A stretch of DNA of 63,970 nucleotides, the filler included, from Licmophora abbreviata (lineage: Eukaryota): NCBI GenBank assembly GCA_900291995.1. It is 8 parts of 8 records of this genome, joined end to end, with 100 filler letters (N's around TTAATTAATTAA, not from the genome) between each part and the next. Parts side by side here need not be neighbours in the genome. Positions count along the whole stretch, not along the records: positions 18,772 to 43,918 come from OLMU01004247.1; positions 44,019 to 57,097 come from OLMU01004248.1; 6 more parts are not named here. One strand, given 5' to 3'. The notes below the pieces were generated by a model that ran no database searches, had not been told where the DNA came from, and worked only from the letters and a program-made list of their open reading frames with translations. This document shows positions 18,672 through 49,186 of the stretch, in pieces (positions within the stretch are counted from its first letter, which is position 1; each line of letters begins with the position of its first letter). A program made the position numbers and the translations under genes.

Positions 18672-18771
18672 NNNNNNNNNNNNNNNNNNNNNNNNNNNNN
18701 NNNNNNNNNNNNNNNTTAATTAATTAANNNNNNNNNNNNNNNNNNNNNNNNNNNNNNNNNNNNNNNNNNNN
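18672..18771. other. Assembly linker; 17-nt overlap (18655-18671 = 18772-18788)
   Basis: AGATGATTCATAGCTCA lies on both sides. Confidence 0.97.
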
Positions 18772-35827: not shown

Positions 35828-36341
35828 ATCGTTTGTCACCGGCTTGCACGGGGGGTTCTGAGACACACCGATGAAAAAGGTTCATGTTGTTAGAAACTCA
35901 GGCATCCTCCATATTAATCAGACTAGTTTATTTCTTGCGAAAGAGAGACCTGTACGATGAAGGTTTCACGTAAAGCGACGTAAACCTTGCAACAGTGATT
36001 CCTATCAGTCGTAGGTGCCATCTAGCTAGCACGACTTGATGTGTGTAACCCTCAGTTAGGAGAAATATATCCAGACAAATCGCACCGTGAACTATCTGTA
36101 GAAACGACTGCACTGCGGTATATGTCAAGGATGGTATTGAAACTTTTGATGGTGCTCTGCTACCCGTTCTTCAATTGTCTACCCAGTGACTGTCATGGTC
36201 GGGGTCAAAGTGGACAAAAGTGTCGCATGCATGACTGAGTTGTGGGATTGCGCGCGCTTTCTCAATTTTCATCACCGGCGGCGTCACAGATGACATCAAC
36301 CGCAGACGGCAGACATCACAGACATCACCGGGTCGTGCACC

Positions 36342-37823
36342 ATGACGACACCAACTTCTCCCAGCAGAATTGGCATTTTGGTGGTGGGATTGGGAGGCAA
36401 CAATGGCGTGACGCTCGTAGCTGGACACATTGCAAACAATCTTGGCTTGGAATGGGAATCGGCGGCCGCTGGACGCGTGAGGGCTCCCAATTGGAATGGA
36501 TGCATCACACAGCTGGAACCGCGAGGCGGCGGGGTCGGGTACAAGGGACGCTTTGATCTGGCGGATGCTGCCAACGCAGCCATCGGTGGATGGGACATTC
36601 GACCGACACCATTGGGTGATGCGCTTTACGAATCTCGTGTGCTGGACTAGGATCTGGTCCGTCAAGTGAGGGACGAAATGAACGCCATGACAATCATGAA
36701 GGGTATCTACGACGCATCGTTTCTTGGGGAAAGTCAGCATGAGACAGCTACACACGTTGTGAAGGATGAACCAACGCTCTTTGAACAGGTGCAGCATATT
36801 CGGAACGATATTCGAGCCTTCATTCGCGAGAAGGAGGTAGACGGGCACACAACCGTCATCTGGAGCGCCAGTGTCGAGCGACCGTCCGATGTGGAGTTTC
36901 CAGATGCGTTCACCCTGCTAAAGGTTATCCTCAAGAATGACACTCGTTACGATGTTTCGCCCTCTATGATTTATGCTGTTGCCTCCGCCATGGAAGGGTG
37001 CTCGTTCGTCAATGGGGGTTCGCAGAACACAGTCTCCAAGGCAATGTGTGAACTGTACGACTGTTCCTTTCGTATCATGCAGCCATCTGCTACACTGAAA
37101 CGCTTTCCAGAAGTATCTGTGCGTTCTGCGTATATTCTCGGAACAGATTTCAAGGCAGGACAGACAAAGTTCAAGACAGCTGCTGTGGAGTACACACGGG
37201 CTCTCGGGTTGACTCCACGAGTGATCGCTAGTTCGAATCATCTCGGCAACAACGACATGCTCAACTTGACTTCCAAAAAGACTATCGAAGCCAAGATGCG
37301 TGTGAAAAAGGACATTTTCGGCCCATGGCAAGAGACAGATCTGGATCACCAAGTTCGAGTCATGTACACGCCTTTCATGGGCGACGAGAAGCGGGATGTG
37401 GTAGAGTACACTTCACTTGGCTTCTTGTCGTGTCCCCATACCATGTTGACGTATACGAGATGCATGGATTCAGTCCTTTGTGTTCCTCTTATGGTGGATG
37501 TCGCTGTGTGGTGCGACTACTTTGCTCGCCATGATATCACGTCGGACAAAGTCGCGCGGGCCACTGCGTATTTGTTCAAAGTGCCGGAGGGAGGTGCCAA
37601 GGGTGTGGATCCAGGGTTTCACCATCAGATGCAGCAACTGGAGGCTATGTTACACGAGACGGCAAACGAGGAAACAAGCGAGACAGTGACACGTCTGAGC
37701 AAGTTTCTCACGCTTGCAAAAGAAAAAGGGATCGTTAGCGCTGAACAAGTCAACGCTCTTGTTGGGTTGGCTTCGCAGCCACCGCCGCAGCAGACAGAAC
37801 TCAAAGCTCGTGATTTTACATGA
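36342..37823 (+). CDS. INO1: myo-inositol-1-phosphate synthase with in-frame TAG at 36648-36650 (pseudogene, read-through or error)
   Basis: [50 protein letters not shown] and GDEKR. The two ORFs are in the same frame. Confidence 0.88.
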
Positions 37824-38076: not shown

Positions 38077-39522
38077 TCAAGTCCTGTTAGTACTTTCCGG
38101 AATCTCACAAAGAGATGCGATTACTTCCCGCAAATCTGTTCGCAGTATGGTTGTGTTGACAATCAAATCTGACTGCTTATACTCCCATGCTGGACACTCA
38201 ACAACGTTAGTATGTCGGTTACACTGTTCCATCATGCCAGCCAGTCGCGTGTTGTTGTGAGGCAGATGTCCTAGCGACAGAATGTATTTCTTGGCAAATG
38301 CCTGACCATTCACCATGAAATGATCATTGGCAAAGATCGAGGCTACTTCGATGAATGCTACGTCAGGAGGACTGAAAAGCATGTTCGCAAGATGTGATCC
38401 ATGACTTGATATCAAAATATCAAACGAGTTGAAAAGTGCCATCTGCTCCTCGAAGGAAGACTCAGAGCTCAAAGTAACAACGGAGAGCGGTATATCAGAA
38501 TACTCACCAACAACCCTCTTGATATCATCCATATTGACAAGCAGCCGCAGAGCCGTTCCTTCTGTTCTCTTCCAAACTGCAATGCGTAAGCCCCTTGCGC
38601 ATACCAATTTATCCCTGCCAGGGAAAAACTTGGTCTGTATCAACGTCTGCCACTCATCCACAACTGAAGGTGGATTCGTTCCCAGATAGCGCGCTGAAGA
38701 GAAGGGCTCCTGGTACACTTCTCTTCCACATACGACAATATCATCGGTATTTACCCCTGGAGTCCCATAAGGAGGACGTGCACTTCTGTTGAAAGGTACG
38801 AAGGGCAGGTACATGCTCACTAGATCTCTTGGACCGGTTACAACTCCACGAGAAAATGCATGCTCCCACAAGAGATGGCTGATCCGATCTGCCCAATTCC
38901 AATGAGGAGGCATGCAATGGTGATACAAGAGTAGATCGAAATGGAGTGATGCATTGGTATAGAACCCACTTGACGCAACAAAAAGCTTTCCGTGCCCCAT
39001 CAAGAAGTGCGCAGGATTCACACTTGTCTGACCGTGCCGCCAACAACTCATAGTTAAGACTTTGTCAGCAAAGTAGACGTTTTTTAAAGTGCGGTACCTT
39101 TCGTAAGGAACAAGCCAAGGTCTCCTGGGAGTCGTGACTTGGTTACGTCTCGACATGAACTTGTTCCACTCAATCGAGGATTCATTTGTCTTGGAATCTG
39201 GTACGTCAAATATCATCATTCCGTCATGTTGAGAGAAGCAGACATTTGTAAAGCGGCAAAACCCCTTATCTGTGCAACCATGGAACTGTGGAGCAGGAAA
39301 ATTCTCAACTCCAAGCGCCGTTGAATGCTTTGTAAGGTAGGGCGAGTGAGATGGGTCCATCAGCGCTGTGATATTCTCAATCTGTCCCGAGCTTGACGGA
39401 GATTCTTTCTCGTGAGATTCTGGCCGTGAGTTCGGAGCGAACAGAATGATAGTAGAGAACTGACTGCCTGCCGAGACAGCAACGATCAGTGCACCAATCA
39501 CACGCCATGAAAAGGTCGTCAT
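38077..39522 (-). CDS. Glycosyltransferase family 61 (DUF563)-like type II membrane protein
   Basis: N-terminal TM, CRFTNVC, NPAHFL and SFEEQMALFNSFDILISSHGSHLANMLF...FIEV. Confidence 0.8.
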   Translation of the reverse strand: MTTFSWRVIGALIVAVSAGSQFSTIILFAPNSRPESHEKESPSSSGQIENITALMDPSHSPYLTKHSTALGVENFPAPQFHGCTDKGFCRFTNVCFSQHDGMMIFDVPDSKTNESSIEWNKFMSRRNQVTTPRRPWLVPYERYRTLKNVYFADKVLTMSCWRHGQTSVNPAHFLMGHGKLFVASSGFYTNASLHFDLLLYHHCMPPHWNWADRISHLLWEHAFSRGVVTGPRDLVSMYLPFVPFNRSARPPYGTPGVNTDDIVVCGREVYQEPFSSARYLGTNPPSVVDEWQTLIQTKFFPGRDKLVCARGLRIAVWKRTEGTALRLLVNMDDIKRVVGEYSDIPLSVVTLSSESSFEEQMALFNSFDILISSHGSHLANMLFSPPDVAFIEVASIFANDHFMVNGQAFAKKYILSLGHLPHNNTRLAGMMEQCNRHTNVVECPAWEYKQSDLIVNTTILRTDLREVIASLCEIPESTNRT

Positions 39523-39901
39523 GACGAACAAGCTACTATGCTATTTGGCTTCTGCTATTTTGCTTTTTTTGTGGTGTGATGAGAACGGGAATAAAATCTT
39601 TTTGATCTTGCGTTGGGCCCTTCTGACATTTCAGAATTAACGATCAGCGATGACTCATATGTCCATCGAGTCCCTAAGAATTAGAAAGTTGCGTAGAATA
39701 ACTACTTGGGCCTACGAGTGAGCGAAAAGACCGTTGTTCACGCACGCGAGTGTGTTGTGCCTTTTTCTTTTGCCCCGCGTCTCATTTTTTCGCGCGACCA
39801 TGCGATGACCGTGGAGCGTTGACTCTTGACTTGCTTGCCTTCCCTGCCGTCGCAATCGCCTTTCCTTCATCTTCACCCCCTTCCCCAGAGTAGTGTTGAC
39901 T

Positions 39902-40729
39902 ATGCCGTCTGGTACAAACTACGTTCTATCCTTGCTGGAGGACGTTGAGACGCAGGAATGCGCCAATTGCCTTCTGGCACTAAAGAACCCAACCGTGACT
40001 GCTCAGCACGATTCCAAGACGGATGAGATGCCTGCCCCCAAGACCGCAGATGAGGAGACGGAGTTCAAGAATGAGCGTAGGAACTCATACGATAGTCTTG
40101 ATAGTAAAGATCCTTCTCTCCTGGATGAGCAGTCTTCACACTCTTCAATGCTTTCTGATGCAGACATCGGGTCATTACTGGGTGACACCAGGCTGGTTCA
40201 CATCGAAGACCGACGCCTTGTGCCAGACTCAATCTTCATTGCCATGGCCCAAATGAAAGTCTGTAAGCTGACAGAGTCCGACAAGGTGGGGAGCTACAAG
40301 AACCGTACGACTGGGTTCATCGGCATGTGCTGTAAGCACTGCGGACAGCGCCGGTCATTCCCCAGCACACTAAGGTGCCTCGCGCAGACTACTACCTCGC
40401 AAACCATTGTGAAGCATATCTCGAGCAAATGTCAGTACAGTCCTCAAGACGTATGCGACAAGGTTCGGGAGCTGCAAATGCTGGAAGCCATGGAGTCGGA
40501 GTCTACCGATATGGTCGTGAATGGTAGGAGACGCTATGGATCACGCAAGGTCTTCTTTCAACGTATCTGGGACCGTCTCCACAACAAACCCACAGACTCG
40601 CCGAAAGAGATCTCTAGTAGTGAGGACGAGAGTTTGACTGACGCCGAGTCTGCATCGCCGAACAAGCGTAAACTACGATTCGGAACGTTGCCAACAAAGC
40701 AGAACCGCAAGCGACGAAAAATTGCTTGA
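39902..40729 (+). CDS. Diatom-type 'GxCCKHC' domain protein with basic C-terminal NLS-like motifs
   Basis: DRRLVPDSIFIAMAQM...IGMCCKHC...IVKHISSKC...YGSRKVFFQRIWDRLH. KRKLR and RKRRK near the C-terminus. Confidence 0.75.
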   Translation: MPSGTNYVLSLLEDVETQECANCLLALKNPTVTAQHDSKTDEMPAPKTADEETEFKNERRNSYDSLDSKDPSLLDEQSSHSSMLSDADIGSLLGDTRLVHIEDRRLVPDSIFIAMAQMKVCKLTESDKVGSYKNRTTGFIGMCCKHCGQRRSFPSTLRCLAQTTTSQTIVKHISSKCQYSPQDVCDKVRELQMLEAMESESTDMVVNGRRRYGSRKVFFQRIWDRLHNKPTDSPKEISSSEDESLTDAESASPNKRKLRFGTLPTKQNRKRRKIA

Positions 40730-40959: not shown

Positions 40960-43900
40960 CTAGCGCTTGTCGTCCTCGATGGACTCAGTCAAAAGCTCGA
41001 GTAGCTTGTCGAAACCGATTGCTCTCCACAAGGCTTGCCAAGAGTTATCGATTTCGGGAGCGTCCACTGGTCTACGCGCAACCGTATGCATCTGTTCGGG
41101 ACTGGCACCGTAGGGATACATGCCAGCCTGTTTTGCTCGGGCATGCATGGCAGTCATCGCATCATCAGTCATGACGGGATCTCGGCTAAGAAAGTTGATC
41201 CCTTCAAAGACGCGGACACCCCCTCGCTCCAAACATTGAAACTGAATAGCTTCTTTGTAGGCTCCCGTTTCCGAGTCCTTCTTGATGTCGACAATGTAGT
41301 TGGGGAATTCCACCCCAAACCCCTTTTCTCTCAAGACACCTGGTGGGTCGTTTTCATCTACTCGACCAAATAAGAAGTAATGGGCTCCGTTGGCGACCGG
41401 CGACTTGTCCCACGACAAGGGTGCCGAATCGGGAGCAGGACCTTTCACCGCGAAATCATCGATCCACCCTTTTCCACCCTCGGTAAGCTGTGCAAATGCG
41501 AGTAATGGGGTGGGCATGGCATTAGTCAGAGAAACGCATCATGTAAAAAACAACACACCTGTCATGTACCGGACGGACCTTAATGTCTAGGGTTGTGTCA
41601 TACACCTCTTTGAACTGAGTCCAGTCATGGAACTTGTGTTCGTACCACTTTCCTTGGTACTTTTCAATGTCAAAATTGTCCATCGACGGCTGGCGTACAT
41701 CGTCGTATGCAGGACACCCCCGAACAATCGCGCCATTGTATCCGTCGTCCAGCGCAAGATTGTAGTCACCAAGACCGGCTTGTCCATCCAAACCTGCACC
41801 CACATAGGCAAAGAAAGCAGTAAGCACAGCAATATTGACAGCGTCACGGAGTTGAGAAGATAGAGTGACTGCCCCGATAAAGAGTAGATTGGCTGCAAGA
41901 AACGTTGCTGGTACAAGATCGCCAACGAGCGGGCCTGGACTACCATGCAGCAGATCACTCAAAGCAAGAACTGGAGGAAGAATCGGGTGTCCTGCAGCAA
42001 AGAAGATCCAGAACTGCAAGGCCGCCCAGAAGTCTGCGGGATCAGCCACATTGGCCTTCATCTGAGACACAGAATGAAAGAACTCTTGATAGGCTGCCGT
42101 ATGCGTTGCAATTGCACTAGTTCCAATCACAGCAGTCGCAATGGGAAAAATGTTCGATGAGAGAGGACCAGGCGATCTGACATCCTTCTGAGTCAATATG
42201 GTGTCTAGAATGGAGATAAAATCGTCCGCAAACTCCGCAGCGGTCTCGTCGGTCACAATTGGTCTGGCTGGATGGAAAGTGCATTGCATCTCGCCGCCAA
42301 CAGTCATGCAAGTCACGGGGTAGAGGCACCCTGTTCGAGAATGGGAAGATCCGGCATAGATATCGAGAACTTGGTATCTCCCGTGTTTCAACTGAAATAA
42401 CCAAATCACAAGGGAGCGTCAGCAAATCTATTTTCTTCACATGCATTGGCTCTTATTCATCAAGTGAGCAGGAAGCTTACCTGGATGAGACTCCGCTCAT
42501 TGTCGCCTTCCCGACGAACAGCTTCTTGTCGTTCGTACACACCGACATTGGTGATTCCAGCACTGTACGCTCGCCCCAGAGTATCTTTCGACAACGACGT
42601 CACATGAACTAAGTTGTTCAAATCACTTATGTTCATGGTGAAATCAAAGACGCGCGCTGCCTCTTGTGGTCCACCCGACTTAATAAACTTTTCGGTCTGT
42701 TTCTTTCCTTCTCGCGCCAACCGCCAAAACTGTGAAAGGCGTTCTTTGCTAGGCTCCTCGCACAGTGCCTTACCAGAGCGATCACGCAACGGCCCATACA
42801 TGAGATCCATACTACTTGCCATACAAGCTACCGTCTCACACTTGTCAAGTTTGTCTCCGAACCGACGCATATCTAACGACTGAAGAATCTTGTAGTTTCG
42901 TTTCTTGCCTTTTTCCACACCCCCGTCTATAAAATCAGTCGATGCCAAGGTTACTGCCGCCGACAAGGCGTTTGTGACAGAAACGCCCTGACTCCGACAC
43001 TTCTCCAGCAACATCTTCACTTTATCTTTGGACAGCTTCCGAAACTGCAAAGTGGTTGCTCGCTCCTGGTTGCTTTCTCCTCCAGCAGCCTGACCCGAAA
43101 TGACGGTAAGAGCGCCTAACGGACTGCCCCCGCCCGCTTGCAAGTCATCTGGCACTATTACTGGACTCTTAAATCCTTCCAACGCCTTGTCCAACACGTA
43201 GCGAGCGGTAGTTGGCGAGGCACCCTCTAAAATGTTCTCTCGTGAGCGATAGCCTTTTCCGAGAACAGAGTCTTCGAGCGCCAATGGCAAGCTTTTCTTG
43301 ACCGCAGGCTTGACCACACGCTTGGACGTTTCAATGCTATCAACGTTTGCAACAATTTCGTCCAATAAGACATTGACGGATCCTTGATCACTAATGGCGT
43401 GATTGAAAGCCATCAGCAAAGCACAGGGCGCGTTCTTGCTGTTACCTAGACGATGCAACTGGACCTTCCAAAGTGGGCCTGTCTCAACCTGACACCACTC
43501 ATCATCGTCGATATGAAATTGAAATGACTTTTGCCAGCTTCTATTGAGCGCATCTCGATCTGAATCCCCGCTCATTTTCTCCACATTGACAATCTCCAGT
43601 ACATCGCTACTGCTAAACCTCGATTGAGCCGGCGCCACAAAGGTAAGAGGATTCGGCTCTCCCTCGCGGACCATCTGAAAGAGATCAATGCGTTTCGTCG
43701 GTTCTCCATCACCCTCCACATACGCCCGTAAGAGTGGATGCGTCTCCATACTCAGCTCAAGGACTTGGCGAAGAGCCTCCTCCGACGGTGTCGCACTGAG
43801 GACACAGGCCATGACATGGTTCAATTGCGGAAAGGTCACGTCCTCATTGGGACCGTATTGACGGGGCAGCATGAGATTCTCTTGGGAACCCAGTACCCGC

Positions 43901-44227
43901 CGCTCCGACGTATCTTCGNNNNNNNNNNNNNNNNNNNNNNNNNNNNNNNNNNNNNNNNNNNNTTAATTAATTAANNNNNNNNNNNNNNNNNNNNNNNNNN
44001 NNNNNNNNNNNNNNNNNNAGTACCCGCCGCTCCGACGTATCTTCGGAAGAGATTCCTGAAAACGGTTCTGCAGTGTCAGTTTCGACGGCTCGCAGTACTC
44101 TAGTAGGCTGCCGGTGATGGTTGCTTGGGGAAAACGTGTTGGTGGTTGGGGTGAAGGAATTCACCCTCAACGTCGACTGAGTCGCAGCCATGAATGCTAC
44201 TATCCAAAGAGAAGCCCTACGGTTCAT
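40960..44227 (-). CDS. Fusion protein: presequence + HxxxD condensation/alcohol-acyltransferase-like domain + TM helices + lipocalin-like domain; introns 42392-42480 and 41488-41578; spans a false gap
   Basis: THPLLRA, GPLWKV and FNHAISD motifs. FDIEKYQGKWYE lipocalin SCR1. Both introns are phase-0 GT-AG. The 27-nt overlap across the linker keeps the frame. Confidence 0.78.
43919..44018. other. Assembly linker; 27-nt overlap (43892-43918 = 44019-44045)
   Basis: AGTACCCGCCGCTCCGACGTATCTTCG lies on both sides. Confidence 0.97.
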
Positions 44228-44417: not shown

Positions 44418-46934
44418 ATGATTCATTCGACTCGACTCATTCCAAGTCTGGCCGTCGTCACAAGAGCATTTCACTCGCAGCACACGCACCACAACAGCGC
44501 CGCTCATTTTCGTGACACAGCAGCAAGCGAAGCGACCATGATGAGCGGAGTAAATAGCCGGCGTTTCATGTCGCCACACATCGGTGGGCCAAGGATCAAG
44601 CACTTGGCAACGGGTGTCGCTTGTTTCCCGGGAAGTCAAATTGTTTTGGATCTTTGTTCTCTGCTGGTCAGCCTGACGAAAGGCATCAGTTTGCAAGGAG
44701 GCTGAGTAGTCGAACGAAGGGCAGTGCTGGTTCCTCCTCCTGGGTGGACCAAGACGACGCCGATTCCGATTTCGGAGATGGTTTTGAAGAAAAGCGCGAA
44801 TTCACTGCGAATGAAATGGAGTTCTTTGATGACATTCAAGATGAGATGATTCAACAAAAGGAAGCGGAACATCAGGCAGAAAAAGAAGAGCGCGAACGAC
44901 AACAACAAGCACAGCAAGTTCGAGATGAGCTCGATGCCAAGAAAGGACGGCTCTGGTCCGATCCGTGGGAAATCACAGACGATGACTGGAGTAACAGGAG
45001 AACGTTTGAGGACTTGCCTGATTGGTCGCCTGACATGTGCTCTCGGATAAGCATGGAACGTGTTCAAGTGCATCCTGGTGAGTCCTGACTGCACCGATTG
45101 CGCAGTCTCCCTCCCTGGCACTGCCTACCAGTCCATTCCTCGCCCTCAATTGCCAAACTGACTAACTTTATCTCATTCCCACCTCCTAGATGGCATTCTA
45201 ACACTCGAGGTGCTTGCTAATCTGCCGTTACCTCCGCCTCCACCTCCCCACCCCGGCCACGGCGATCCCACTCCGTATGCCTCTCGTCGCACTGGCTACC
45301 TCTCGCAACGCATCAAAGACCTTGTTGTTGAACTCGCAGAACCACGCATTGCAGCCATCTTGAAACTATCAGATTGGAGTGAAAAGCAGGATCGCGTCGA
45401 TGAGCTATATGAATCCATCGAATTTCAGCTAAGAGATAGCGAGACTGTCCTTGGGAAGCACCCCATGTTTGGCGAATGGGTCGAGTCGGCCTTGGAGCAG
45501 TACTTGAAATCCATTGAGCAGAGAGAGCGTAAGACCACTGTGGCGAAGCTTATGGAAAGTGCGAAACGTGTCGCCGAAACCAAGCTCAGCGCCATGTTGG
45601 AAAATCCCAACACCCCAGAGATGGAAAAGCGAGAAGCTTTGGCAGCCGAAGTGCGAAAGGCAAATGGAGATTTGGCTTTGCTCCCTCAATTTAATTCCTT
45701 GGTGAAAAAAGCGTTGAAGCAAAATGCAAAGAATGCCACCTTGCAGGGCGAGGCTGCTGCGGCGCTCGAAACGTCCAAGTCGGAGGACGCTCCGTCGGAC
45801 TCTACAGCCACTCCTGTGTTTATGGACCTTTATGCTTCCAGCGATGGTCCAACTGTGGTTGTTCCTTCCATCCTAAATCCACTCGCACCGCACGCAAAGG
45901 ATGGGCCTGGTCGAATGGTAGAAGAGTGGGAGCTGGCGGCACACAAGGAAACGAAGCGAATCATGCTACGAAGTTGCATTCGTGAGATGGCGCGCGTCTT
46001 GCACAATGAGGTCTCCTCTCGTCTCGTCGTGACAGGACGAAGGGGAGTTGGTAAGTCGGCAGCACTGAGCGCCATTGTGGCGTCAGCGCGCAAGTCGGGT
46101 CATATCGTTCTGTTTCTTCCGGATGGAGATCGCATGAAGCGGAACTTTCATTACATTCAGCCGAACGCTCGACGAGAGGGCATCTTTGATCTTCCAGTAC
46201 TGTCAATGGAGGTATGTGGTCAGTTTCTGCAAAGTCATGAGTCCGATCTGGCTGGGATGTCGATTAATTCCGAAGGAATGGAAAAATTCTTCACGGAAGC
46301 TCAAATCAAGAAACTTCCCATCGAGTCAACAGAAAATGTTTCGCTCGTCGACCTTCTGCGGGTTGGAAGCGAAAATACCGACTTGGCTGCCATGTGCTAT
46401 TCTGTGGTGGTGCATTCGCTCATGAACCAGACAGAGAAACCATTCTTGATGGTGTTGGACGAGTTCAACAGCTATTTTGACTACAACCAGTACTTTCACA
46501 TGGAATACGATATGACGGTTCGCAAGCCGATTCCTCCTGAGCAAGTTTCGCTTTATCAACCAGCTTTGAATGCGCTTGGCTTGTCCGTATCAGATGAAGT
46601 CATCGTGAAGCCAACGCTCTCGGTCAAAAGAGGCGGGGTCCTGGTGGGAATGACGGAATCGAAGGCCGTGGCCTGTAGTGCTACCGATGCGCTTGTTGCG
46701 TCGGCAAGACGAGAAACCACGGATCCAGATTCTGAGGCGAAAATGCACATTATTGATGTACCGCGTTATTCTATTCTGGAATCACAACACATTGTCTCGA
46801 ACATGGAGGCGATAGGCATTGGCCGTCTACGATTTGATCGCGGGGATACAGTCATGAATGACAACGAGGTTGCGTATCTACGGATGGTGTCGGGTGGAGC
46901 CGGACAACATCTGTTGGACGCTTGCATTTTATAA
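44418..46934 (+). CDS. DAP3: Mitochondrial ribosomal protein mS29/DAP3-like; intron 45078-45189; probable 1-nt frameshift between 44558 and 44705
   Basis: P-loop TGRRGVGKS, IVLFLPDG, LMVLDEFN and VPRYS...SGG. The N-terminus resembles a mitochondrial presequence. Confidence 0.75.
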
Positions 46935-47961: not shown

Positions 47962-48451
47962 CGCGGCACTAGCAGTTTTTTGGCGGGAAAGACTCGTTCG
48001 AAAAGAGCACCCGATTTTCGACTCTGAACAGATCTCCAGAAGCCACAGCCCCAGCTACTCAACGATTACAATGGGAAGGTTTGTTCTCGACGTTGTTGCG
48101 TAGGGGACGAGCCGCTCTAGGTTGCCGCCACTGCCTGCATTCCACTCGAAGGGATGTTGCTTCGAGTGAAAAAGTAGAAGTTTGAAGTTGATGAAAGAAG
48201 CGCTCGTCGCCATCGTCTCTCGTCTTCACTCACTCGTCTCTTGCGCGCGCCATTTTACCAAAGAAGGAATCCGGAATCCGTCGGCGTCAAGGCGCAATGT
48301 GTGACGCTTCCGGCCATCAACCGCTTAGCGCGCGTGATGACAGAAAGATCTGTGGCCATCAGAGCTTCGAACCATCACGGCGCTGTTGCCACTAGCCCAT
48401 TACACTAACCTCTTTTGCATTCGTCGCCGTCCGACGAGAGACGTTGCAATT

Positions 48452-49186
48452 ATGGTGAAGATCACTACACTCATCGTGCTACACGCCTTGGTCGGAGCAA
48501 CCCTGGCACTCACACCGTCGCAACCCGCGTTCTCACGGAAATTGAAAACACAATGTTCCGCCACACTGGAAGGCCGACAAATCAAGGGTGACTTCAAGCC
48601 CATCAACAACTTTTTGCTTGTCAAAGTCGCACCTGCTCAGGAAGAGACTGAAGGCGGAATCCTGCTATCGGGAAAGGCAAAGATTAAGAAGACCGAGGGT
48701 ACTGTCATCTCTGTGGGCCCTGGAAAGACTCACCAGGATTCAGGCGCTGTCTTTGAGATGCCAGTGGAAGCTGGGGAGGGTGTAGTATACGGAAAGTTTG
48801 ATGGAACTGAGGTCAAGTACAATGATGAGCCGCACACTCTCATTCGTGATGACGATATTCTGATCAAGTTCACGGGAGACGAGCTGACTCTGGAAAGTTG
48901 CGATGTCATTCGGGACTCGTGCTTGGTGCGACCCAACTTGGCGGATGAGGAGGAATCCACTGGGGGCATCCTGCTGGCCAAGAGCTCTACGAGCGAAGCC
49001 AAGCCGTCCACAGGTGAAGTAGTCAAGGTGGGACCTGGAAGAATGGCTGCCAATGGCTCGCTTATGGACATGGATGTAGGGGTTGGCGACATGATCAAGT
49101 TTCGTGATTATGCTGGCAATGAAGTCACGGTTGAAGGCGAAGAATACACGGTTGTGCGAATGATCGACATCCTTGCCAAGTTCTAG
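48452..49186 (+). CDS. cpn20: Plastid chaperonin 20/21 (tandem GroES domains)
   Basis: Two copies of T.GGILL...G.V..VGPG. N-terminal signal peptide. Confidence 0.93.
   Translation: MVKITTLIVLHALVGATLALTPSQPAFSRKLKTQCSATLEGRQIKGDFKPINNFLLVKVAPAQEETEGGILLSGKAKIKKTEGTVISVGPGKTHQDSGAVFEMPVEAGEGVVYGKFDGTEVKYNDEPHTLIRDDDILIKFTGDELTLESCDVIRDSCLVRPNLADEEESTGGILLAKSSTSEAKPSTGEVVKVGPGRMAANGSLMDMDVGVGDMIKFRDYAGNEVTVEGEEYTVVRMIDILAKF

Follow-up and report, generated by a model that had tools for sequence, protein, structure and literature searches.

A gene of Licmophora abbreviata for a probable diatom xanthophyll acetyltransferase with a fused lipocalin module

We report a gene on the minus strand of a stretch of Licmophora abbreviata DNA (GenBank assembly GCA_900291995.1), a window of 63,970 nucleotides in which eight parts of eight records are joined end to end across seven filler gaps. 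The gene, running from 44227 to 40960, is very probably the diatom ortholog of XACT, and its sequence predicts a plastid-imported acetyltransferase of allenic xanthophylls with a separable lumenal lipocalin module. Cao et al. (2026; PMC13080032) described PtXACT (Phatr3_J36932), which combines an AATase domain with a lipocalin, as the xanthophyll acetyltransferase in the synthesis of the brown pigment fucoxanthin. The first-pass annotation of this DNA knew of no characterized protein with such an architecture, a statement overturned by PtXACT, which is a published ortholog with a known function. The architecture and main function are already in print (April 2026), and the ortholog status of the gene is routine. 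The C-terminal half is a concrete and cheap candidate for one of the last steps still unassigned on the way to diadinoxanthin and fucoxanthin, which count among the chief pigments of photosynthesis in the sea; alternatively, it may be a new lumenal carrier of carotenoids.

The spliced product is collinear with PtXACT (P0110) and identical to it at 606 of 986 residues (61.5%). Identity amounts to 56% in the acetyltransferase domain (PtXACT residues 93-638), 64% in a helical segment, and 88% in the lipocalin (805-994). The 56% value falls inside the range of diatom orthologs (44-61%) and over that of lipocalin-less paralogs (36-38%), both taken from Dataset S3 of PMC13080032. Residues H234 and D238 and also L124 are retained, corresponding to H257, D261, and the essential L153 of PtXACT; loss of L153 abolishes PtXACT activity (PMC13080032). 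We identified P0110 (1,020 residues) as PtXACT from the agreement, by eye, of its first 400 residues with the Dataset S4 sequence, and it shares one 90% cluster with UniProt B5Y425. The UniProt model B5Y425 itself (P0105) has 987 residues, 33 fewer than the 1,020-residue form, the difference lying inside the acetyltransferase domain.

A search with the exon-1 domain, limited to proteins of 840 or more residues and so selecting toward fusions, gave 104 matches, and every named one is a diatom. The helical segment was found in 103 of these long homologs, the lipocalin in 99, and all three segments in 98, which include transcript-derived complete open reading frames (ORFs). Four homologs are named in the supplements of PMC13080032 (Psemu1|297863, CAMPEP_0185733512, Fracy 183807, and A0A9K3LCY4). 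In AlphaFold models of orthologs, a condensation-fold domain and five helices accompany a lipocalin barrel of eight strands, so that the coenzyme A (CoA)-dependent HxxxD acyltransferase fold and the lipocalin fold put forward in the first-pass annotation were both borne out.

Splicing reproduced the gene structure proposed earlier, with four ORFs, two phase-0 GT-AG introns, and a false gap with a 27-nucleotide overlap. Removal of the linker gap and both introns leaves a single frame of 986 residues without internal stops, with 540, 271, and 175 codons (plus the stop) in the three exons. The features, all on the minus strand except for the unstranded gap, are as follows.

44227..40960, minus strand: XACT-type gene, four open pieces joined into one frame
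42481..44227, minus strand: exon 1, residues 1-540 once the gap is closed
43919..44018, no strand: scaffolding gap N44-TTAATTAATTAA-N44, falsely splitting exon 1
42392..42480, minus strand: intron 1, 89 nucleotides, GTAAGC..TTTCAG, GT-AG, phase 0
41579..42391, minus strand: exon 2, residues 541-811
41488..41578, minus strand: intron 2, 91 nucleotides, GTCCGT..GCACAG, GT-AG, phase 0
40960..41487, minus strand: exon 3, residues 812-986 and the stop
44156..44227, minus strand: putative signal peptide, residues 1-24, ending VNS/F, read by eye
42191..43908, minus strand: acetyltransferase domain (AATase/condensation fold), residues ~65-607, spanning intron 1
43726..43740, minus strand: HPLLR, residue 121 on; L124 is the counterpart of PtXACT L153
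43387..43404, minus strand: NHAISD (HxxxD catalytic motif), residue 233 on; H234 and D238 are the counterparts of PtXACT H257 and D261
41786..42145, minus strand: five-helix hydrophobic segment, residues ~623-742, from AlphaFold helices of orthologs and hydropathy
41073..41716, minus strand: lipocalin barrel, residues ~766-950, spanning intron 2, 88% identical to PtXACT
41653-41639, minus strand: GKWYE, residue 787 on, within the lipocalin

The gap at 43919-44018 sits between consecutive contigs of the source genome (C4247 and C4248), and its flanks overlap exactly over 27 nucleotides (43892-43918 recurs at 44019-44045); flank overlaps at the remaining six of the seven window gaps are 0, 0, 1, 1, 2, and 17 nucleotides. 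For intron 2, an alternative acceptor at 41479 is also in frame (983 residues), but it was rejected because three conserved residues are lost, while 41488 gives a gap-free alignment with PtXACT. Lipocalin matches end at the intron 2 site in 15 of 99 cases, and 14 of those 15 homologs continue ...IK/V; the position is apparently common to other diatoms. A genome search for either half found this locus as the sole match in the source genome, a count to be read as a lower bound.

A reconstruction that passes through a contig break could be an artefact in which neighbouring genes were fused on paper across the gap and invented introns. Split forms with their own presequences do lie inside the diatom clade (P0126, P0127, and P0131), and the Seminavis XACT was entered in the PMC13080032 dataset as 599 residues without a lipocalin. 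Against an artefact, the product is collinear with PtXACT end to end, both splice junctions included; there is neither a stop nor a leader between the domains; the gap lies within the presequence and not at a domain boundary; and the fusion is present in 98 of the 104 long homologs. We regard an artefact as extremely improbable, and we are confident that the gene is real, that it has been rebuilt correctly, and that it adds a member to the published XACT family.

By eye, residues 1 to ~64 appear to form a bipartite plastid-type presequence, in which a signal peptide precedes a Ser/Thr-rich transit-like stretch; the hydrophobic leader carries a VNS-FTP motif, with VNS/F at residues 22-25. XACT orthologs carry the cleavage motifs GHA-FAP, VQA-FSTP, and TCA-FTP (Dataset S4, PMC13080032). 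VNS/F, HPLLR, NHAISD, and GKWYE, the motifs singled out beforehand, were all found in their places. All 74 aligned orthologs keep the His and Asp of HxxxD, and C766 and C896 are invariant in 71 of 71 rows of aligned lipocalin domains. In Pfam, the window protein matched Condensation, PapA_C, and AATase only, all below threshold (AATase at an expect value [E] of 0.008), and the orthologs P0110 and P0001 exceeded the AATase cut-off. The lipocalin exons gave zero Pfam matches, and orthologs gave only weak matches to Lipocalin_2.

According to PMC13080032, acetyl-CoA is the only donor that PtXACT uses on allenoxanthin, phaneroxanthinol, and fucoxanthinol, loss of the enzyme yields green cells with fucoxanthinol, and activity was demonstrated for PtXACT and four other orthologs. 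Acetylation by the Licmophora protein is expected from its orthology to PtXACT, where the reaction was shown. We propose that the protein would be imported into the plastid, where its N-terminal HxxxD domain, with acetyl-CoA as donor, would acetylate the 3-hydroxyl of the same three allenic xanthophylls. The helical segment would anchor it in the thylakoid membrane, and the lipocalin, on the lumen side, would be a separable putative xanthophyll-binding module, a carrier or regulator placed near the lumenal VDL enzymes that make allenic substrates. It would be dispensable for acetylation, as was shown for PtXACT. A wax-ester or phytol acyltransferase role was rejected, the ortholog being acetyl-CoA specific (PMC13080032); of the ligands suggested in the first pass, xanthophyll stands as the substrate, and phytol and oxidized lipid do not agree with strict acetyl-CoA acetylation of allenic xanthophylls.

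PtXACT Domain 1 (residues 1-640) on its own is sufficient to complement the mutant, and its substrate ranking in vitro is preserved (PMC13080032). S32, the published mutant, carries a frameshift in one allele and an in-frame -3 bp change in the other (L153 lost, H154N), and this second allele should still yield a full-length protein with its C-terminal half intact; "dispensable" therefore holds for acetylation only, and the C-terminal half is never removed in vivo in that mutant. The authors themselves consider that the lipocalin domain may act in vivo. Their main text takes residues 641-1020 as a single lipocalin domain and, in the portion accessible, says nothing of the helical segment or topology; PtXACT is predicted to be a plastid protein and carries the DeepLoc label "Transmembrane" in Dataset S1. 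For XACT proteins, the paper notes the lipocalin only as present or absent, and stand-alone relatives go unmentioned in the same portions of the paper.

Such relatives exist. A search for the module among shorter proteins gave 617 matches, the best 120 of which are listed; many are fragments of fused genes. Among those 120, 35 have no acetyltransferase match and carry more than 40 residues ahead of the helices; most of these 35 stretches resemble, by eye, signal plus transit peptides, and at least one protein appears chimeric. P0135 (433, class "no AT") appears chimeric and was disregarded. Where a source is named, the stand-alone modules are a complete ORF of Phaeocystis antarctica and a partial sequence of Prymnesium parvum, and the "haptophyte" label for others is provisional. 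Dataset S3 of PMC13080032 scores the haptophyte class of Phaeocystis and Prymnesium as lipocalin negative for XACT and marks the Diacronema XACT as lipocalin positive. At E<=0.001, a profile search of 1.84 billion representatives yielded 378 proteins (best 150 of 378 listed) and revealed a second lipocalin subfamily without helices (subfamily B), ~33% identical to the first, with a profile E of 2e-48 between the two. Members of this second subfamily are separate proteins in brown algae (Ectocarpus, Pylaiella, and Discosporangium), Vaucheria, Tribonema, and Phaeothamnion (9 matches among 161 candidates) and are fused to XACT in the dinoflagellate Breviolum (P0403/P0459). A CxCT-like motif may be common to subfamily B and plant LCNP, the chloroplast lipocalin (CHL).

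Directly ahead of the mature start, 7 of 13 stand-alone relatives have an Arg motif and 9 have an AxA-like cleavage site, so that their leaders would be of the lumen type, as in lumen transfer peptides. A quick tree of 71 lipocalin domains, which returned long-branch warnings, leaves the haptophyte-like rows unresolved and places the split C-terminal halves P0126, P0127, and P0131, each with its own leader, inside the diatom clade. A faster-evolving group of stand-alone paralogs (P0195, P0227, and P0300) also falls inside that clade. In prokaryote genomes, a scan with a pattern from the module alignment, suited to close relatives only, gave 0 confirmed cases among 72 pattern matches.

The several transmembrane helices of the earlier annotation turned out softer than claimed. 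Only two windows of the Licmophora protein exceed a Kyte-Doolittle value of 1.5, and over 74 orthologs mean values of 1.35-1.94 were obtained for four helices; the segment probably comprises three membrane spans plus surface helices. The loop preceding the last helix contains 0.21 K/R per residue, compared with 0.02-0.09 in the other loops, and each of the 74 orthologs has one or more K/R there. Under the positive-inside rule, K/R-rich loops lie on the stromal side, and the enrichment would thus put this loop in the stroma and leave the lipocalin on the lumen side. If there are three spans, the stroma, where acetyl-CoA is, would also hold the acetyltransferase. The C-terminal half probably faces the lumen, the two invariant Cys residues suit a disulfide there, and VDL enzymes are predicted to be lumenal as well (PMC7056318). 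The suggestion that the two domains lie on opposite membrane faces is plausible, given the helices and the loop charge.

Several observations weigh against an acetyltransferase with a separable lumenal carrier. The Pfam matches of the window protein lie beneath curated cut-offs. Given the moderate hydrophobicity, four spans or a monotopic anchor may apply instead of three spans, and with an even number the two domains would end up on the same side. Patterns in the leaders were defined after inspection of the sequences, and the brown-algal leaders have one Arg, not two. Finally, the very high conservation and the invariant polar residues of the lipocalin are more in keeping with an enzyme than with a passive carrier.

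If both domains did share a membrane face, the lipocalin could bind a hydrophobic substrate and pass it to the acyltransferase site. Two distinct lipocalin subfamilies are fused to XACT, one in diatoms and one in dinoflagellates (P0403/P0459), and the dinoflagellate fusion has no helical-segment match, so that its domains may share a side. Removal of the module also shifts apparent Km values (Table 1, PMC13080032). However, Domain 1 alone fully complements with its substrate ranking kept (PMC13080032), the module is a separate gene product in several lineages, the loop charge in diatoms indicates opposite faces, and the full-length ortholog model has a low-confidence linker at 638-651 and a predicted TM score (pTM) of 0.60. 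We consider such a handover improbable, and the coupling of ligand binding to acylation envisaged in the first-pass annotation is not required, since PtXACT residues 1-640 suffice to complement.

The conservation of the C-terminal half speaks to another alternative, in which the protein is bifunctional and the lumenal helix and lipocalin module is itself catalytic in the allenic pathway, likeliest as the missing neoxanthin-to-diadinoxanthin dehydratase. In 73 of 73 orthologs, the C-terminal half has a higher identity to PtXACT than the acetyltransferase has (medians of 85% versus 57%), and 69 of 190 lipocalin columns are invariant versus 41 of 543 in the acetyltransferase. Fifteen residues, seven of them polar, are invariant across the 71 lipocalin domains of both subfamilies; D796, T798, Q799, E865, Q893, Q895, and R913 are found in 71 of 71 rows, and H795, D821, N874, and N909 in at least 90% of them. 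This greater conservation would suit an enzyme working in the lumen like VDE and VDL, which are lipocalin enzymes of the same pathway, and the module is retained whether fused or split (Phaeocystis antarctica, Prymnesium parvum). The step from neoxanthin to diadinoxanthin is described as without an enzyme in PMC9499517, PMC11880063, and PMC11857680, and the in-frame -3 bp allele of S32 means that the module was never deleted in vivo. Our literature searches, with subscription papers mostly outside their coverage, found no enzyme named for this step and no function for the XACT lipocalin half; "J36932" and "xanthophyll acetyltransferase" led to PMC13080032 only.

Against catalysis by the module, full-length recombinant PtXACT was inactive toward all-trans-neoxanthin, and the dinoflagellate XACT produced dinoxanthin, with diadinoxanthin not reported in the accessible portions of PMC13080032; the enzyme assays of that paper were designed for acetylation, with protein made in E. 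coli. Brown algae, which are without diadinoxanthin according to PMC9499517 and low in it according to a table in PMC11857680, have related lipocalins. Because brown algae carry the family, we rejected the idea that these lipocalins occur strictly together with diadinoxanthin. A single mutant line also says little on essentiality. We judge a second activity to be unlikely. If true, XACT would be a two-enzyme protein spanning the thylakoid membrane, its second activity overlooked since the published mutant still makes the C-terminal half.

In structural comparison, the model of P0126 matched lipocalin structures with Z up to 17.0, among which VDE (3cqn) ranked 9th at Z 15.4, with 14% structural identity; scores no lower than that of VDE were reached by ApoD, crustacyanin, TIL, and Blc. 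PF07137, the VDE lipocalin family, had 0 matches in the 4 window pieces, 5 orthologs, and 12 subfamily-B proteins. VDE, VDL1, and VDL2 do share the pathway and the lipocalin barrel with the XACT module, and they are predicted to be lumenal. PDB sequence searches gave weak matches in the first lipocalin motif (SCR1) to Blc only, and Atlas searches led to lipocalin clusters of a generic kind, with none for the XACT-lipocalin family; the haptophyte module had a VDE cluster at 0.83 as its top Atlas match, to be taken as a lead and no more.

Compared with known XACT proteins, the Licmophora product has the same order of parts as PtXACT (presequence, AATase domain, helical segment, and lipocalin), and its length of 986 versus 1,020 residues reflects mostly a shorter presequence. 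A lipocalin at the C-terminus is characteristic of XACT in Diatomista and dinoflagellates. The Nannochloropsis, Ectocarpus, and Isochrysis XACTs belong to the same acetyltransferase family and catalyze the same reaction type (PMC13080032) but have no fused lipocalin and are ~26-28% identical to PtXACT Domain 1. Lipocalin relatives stand alone in Ectocarpus sp., Pylaiella, Phaeocystis, and Prymnesium; Nannochloropsis and Isochrysis are not among the named matches. The dinoflagellate XACT (Breviolum minutum, 908 residues) combines an acetyltransferase with a homologous lipocalin (35% to PtXACT) and has no match to the diatom helical segment. In the quick tree, under the long-branch warning, its lipocalin clusters with the brown-algal/xanthophyte subfamily, which has an extra CGC motif. 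The Dataset S4 row "Thalassiosira pseudonana 1" (B8BUF6), as parsed, holds a 908-residue sequence that starts like the dinoflagellate-type P0403; a Breviolum cluster member also has 908 residues, and a row mix-up or a parsing effect is possible. More distantly, TRI3 (trichothecene 15-O-acetyltransferase), PapA5, nonribosomal peptide synthetase C domains, and AzeD have the N-terminal fold and HxxxD in common with XACT. These condensation-fold acyltransferases matched the ortholog model in Foldseek at E values of 1e-21 to 5e-15 with 11-17% identity and, unlike XACT, have no membrane segment or lipocalin.

By Pfam, the neighbours of XACT in the window show no sign of a pigment gene cluster. Upstream, a divergent neighbour at 44558-46934 (plus strand) begins ~300 bp from the XACT start and contains two ORFs, the second matching DAP3 (mitochondrial ribosomal S29); the two are probably joined by an intron near 45080-45190. 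Farther along, 48341-49186 (plus strand) encodes a two-domain Cpn10 (chloroplast Cpn20-like). On the other side lie a 299-residue ORF with a CCKHC motif and no Pfam match (39830-40729, plus strand) and a Glycosyltransferase 61 gene (38077-39540, minus strand). A myo-inositol-1-phosphate synthase frame at 36294-37823 (plus strand) contains one in-frame TAG at 36648-36650, directly flanked by Pfam positions 1-100 and 102-319; the TAG may be a premature stop, an allele, or a sequencing error. All seven gaps of the window (14389, 16787, 18672, 43919, 57098, 59536, and 61803) consist of the same N44-TTAATTAATTAA-N44 linker, and the gap at 18672-18771, whose flanks share the 17-nucleotide exact overlap, may conceal another split gene.

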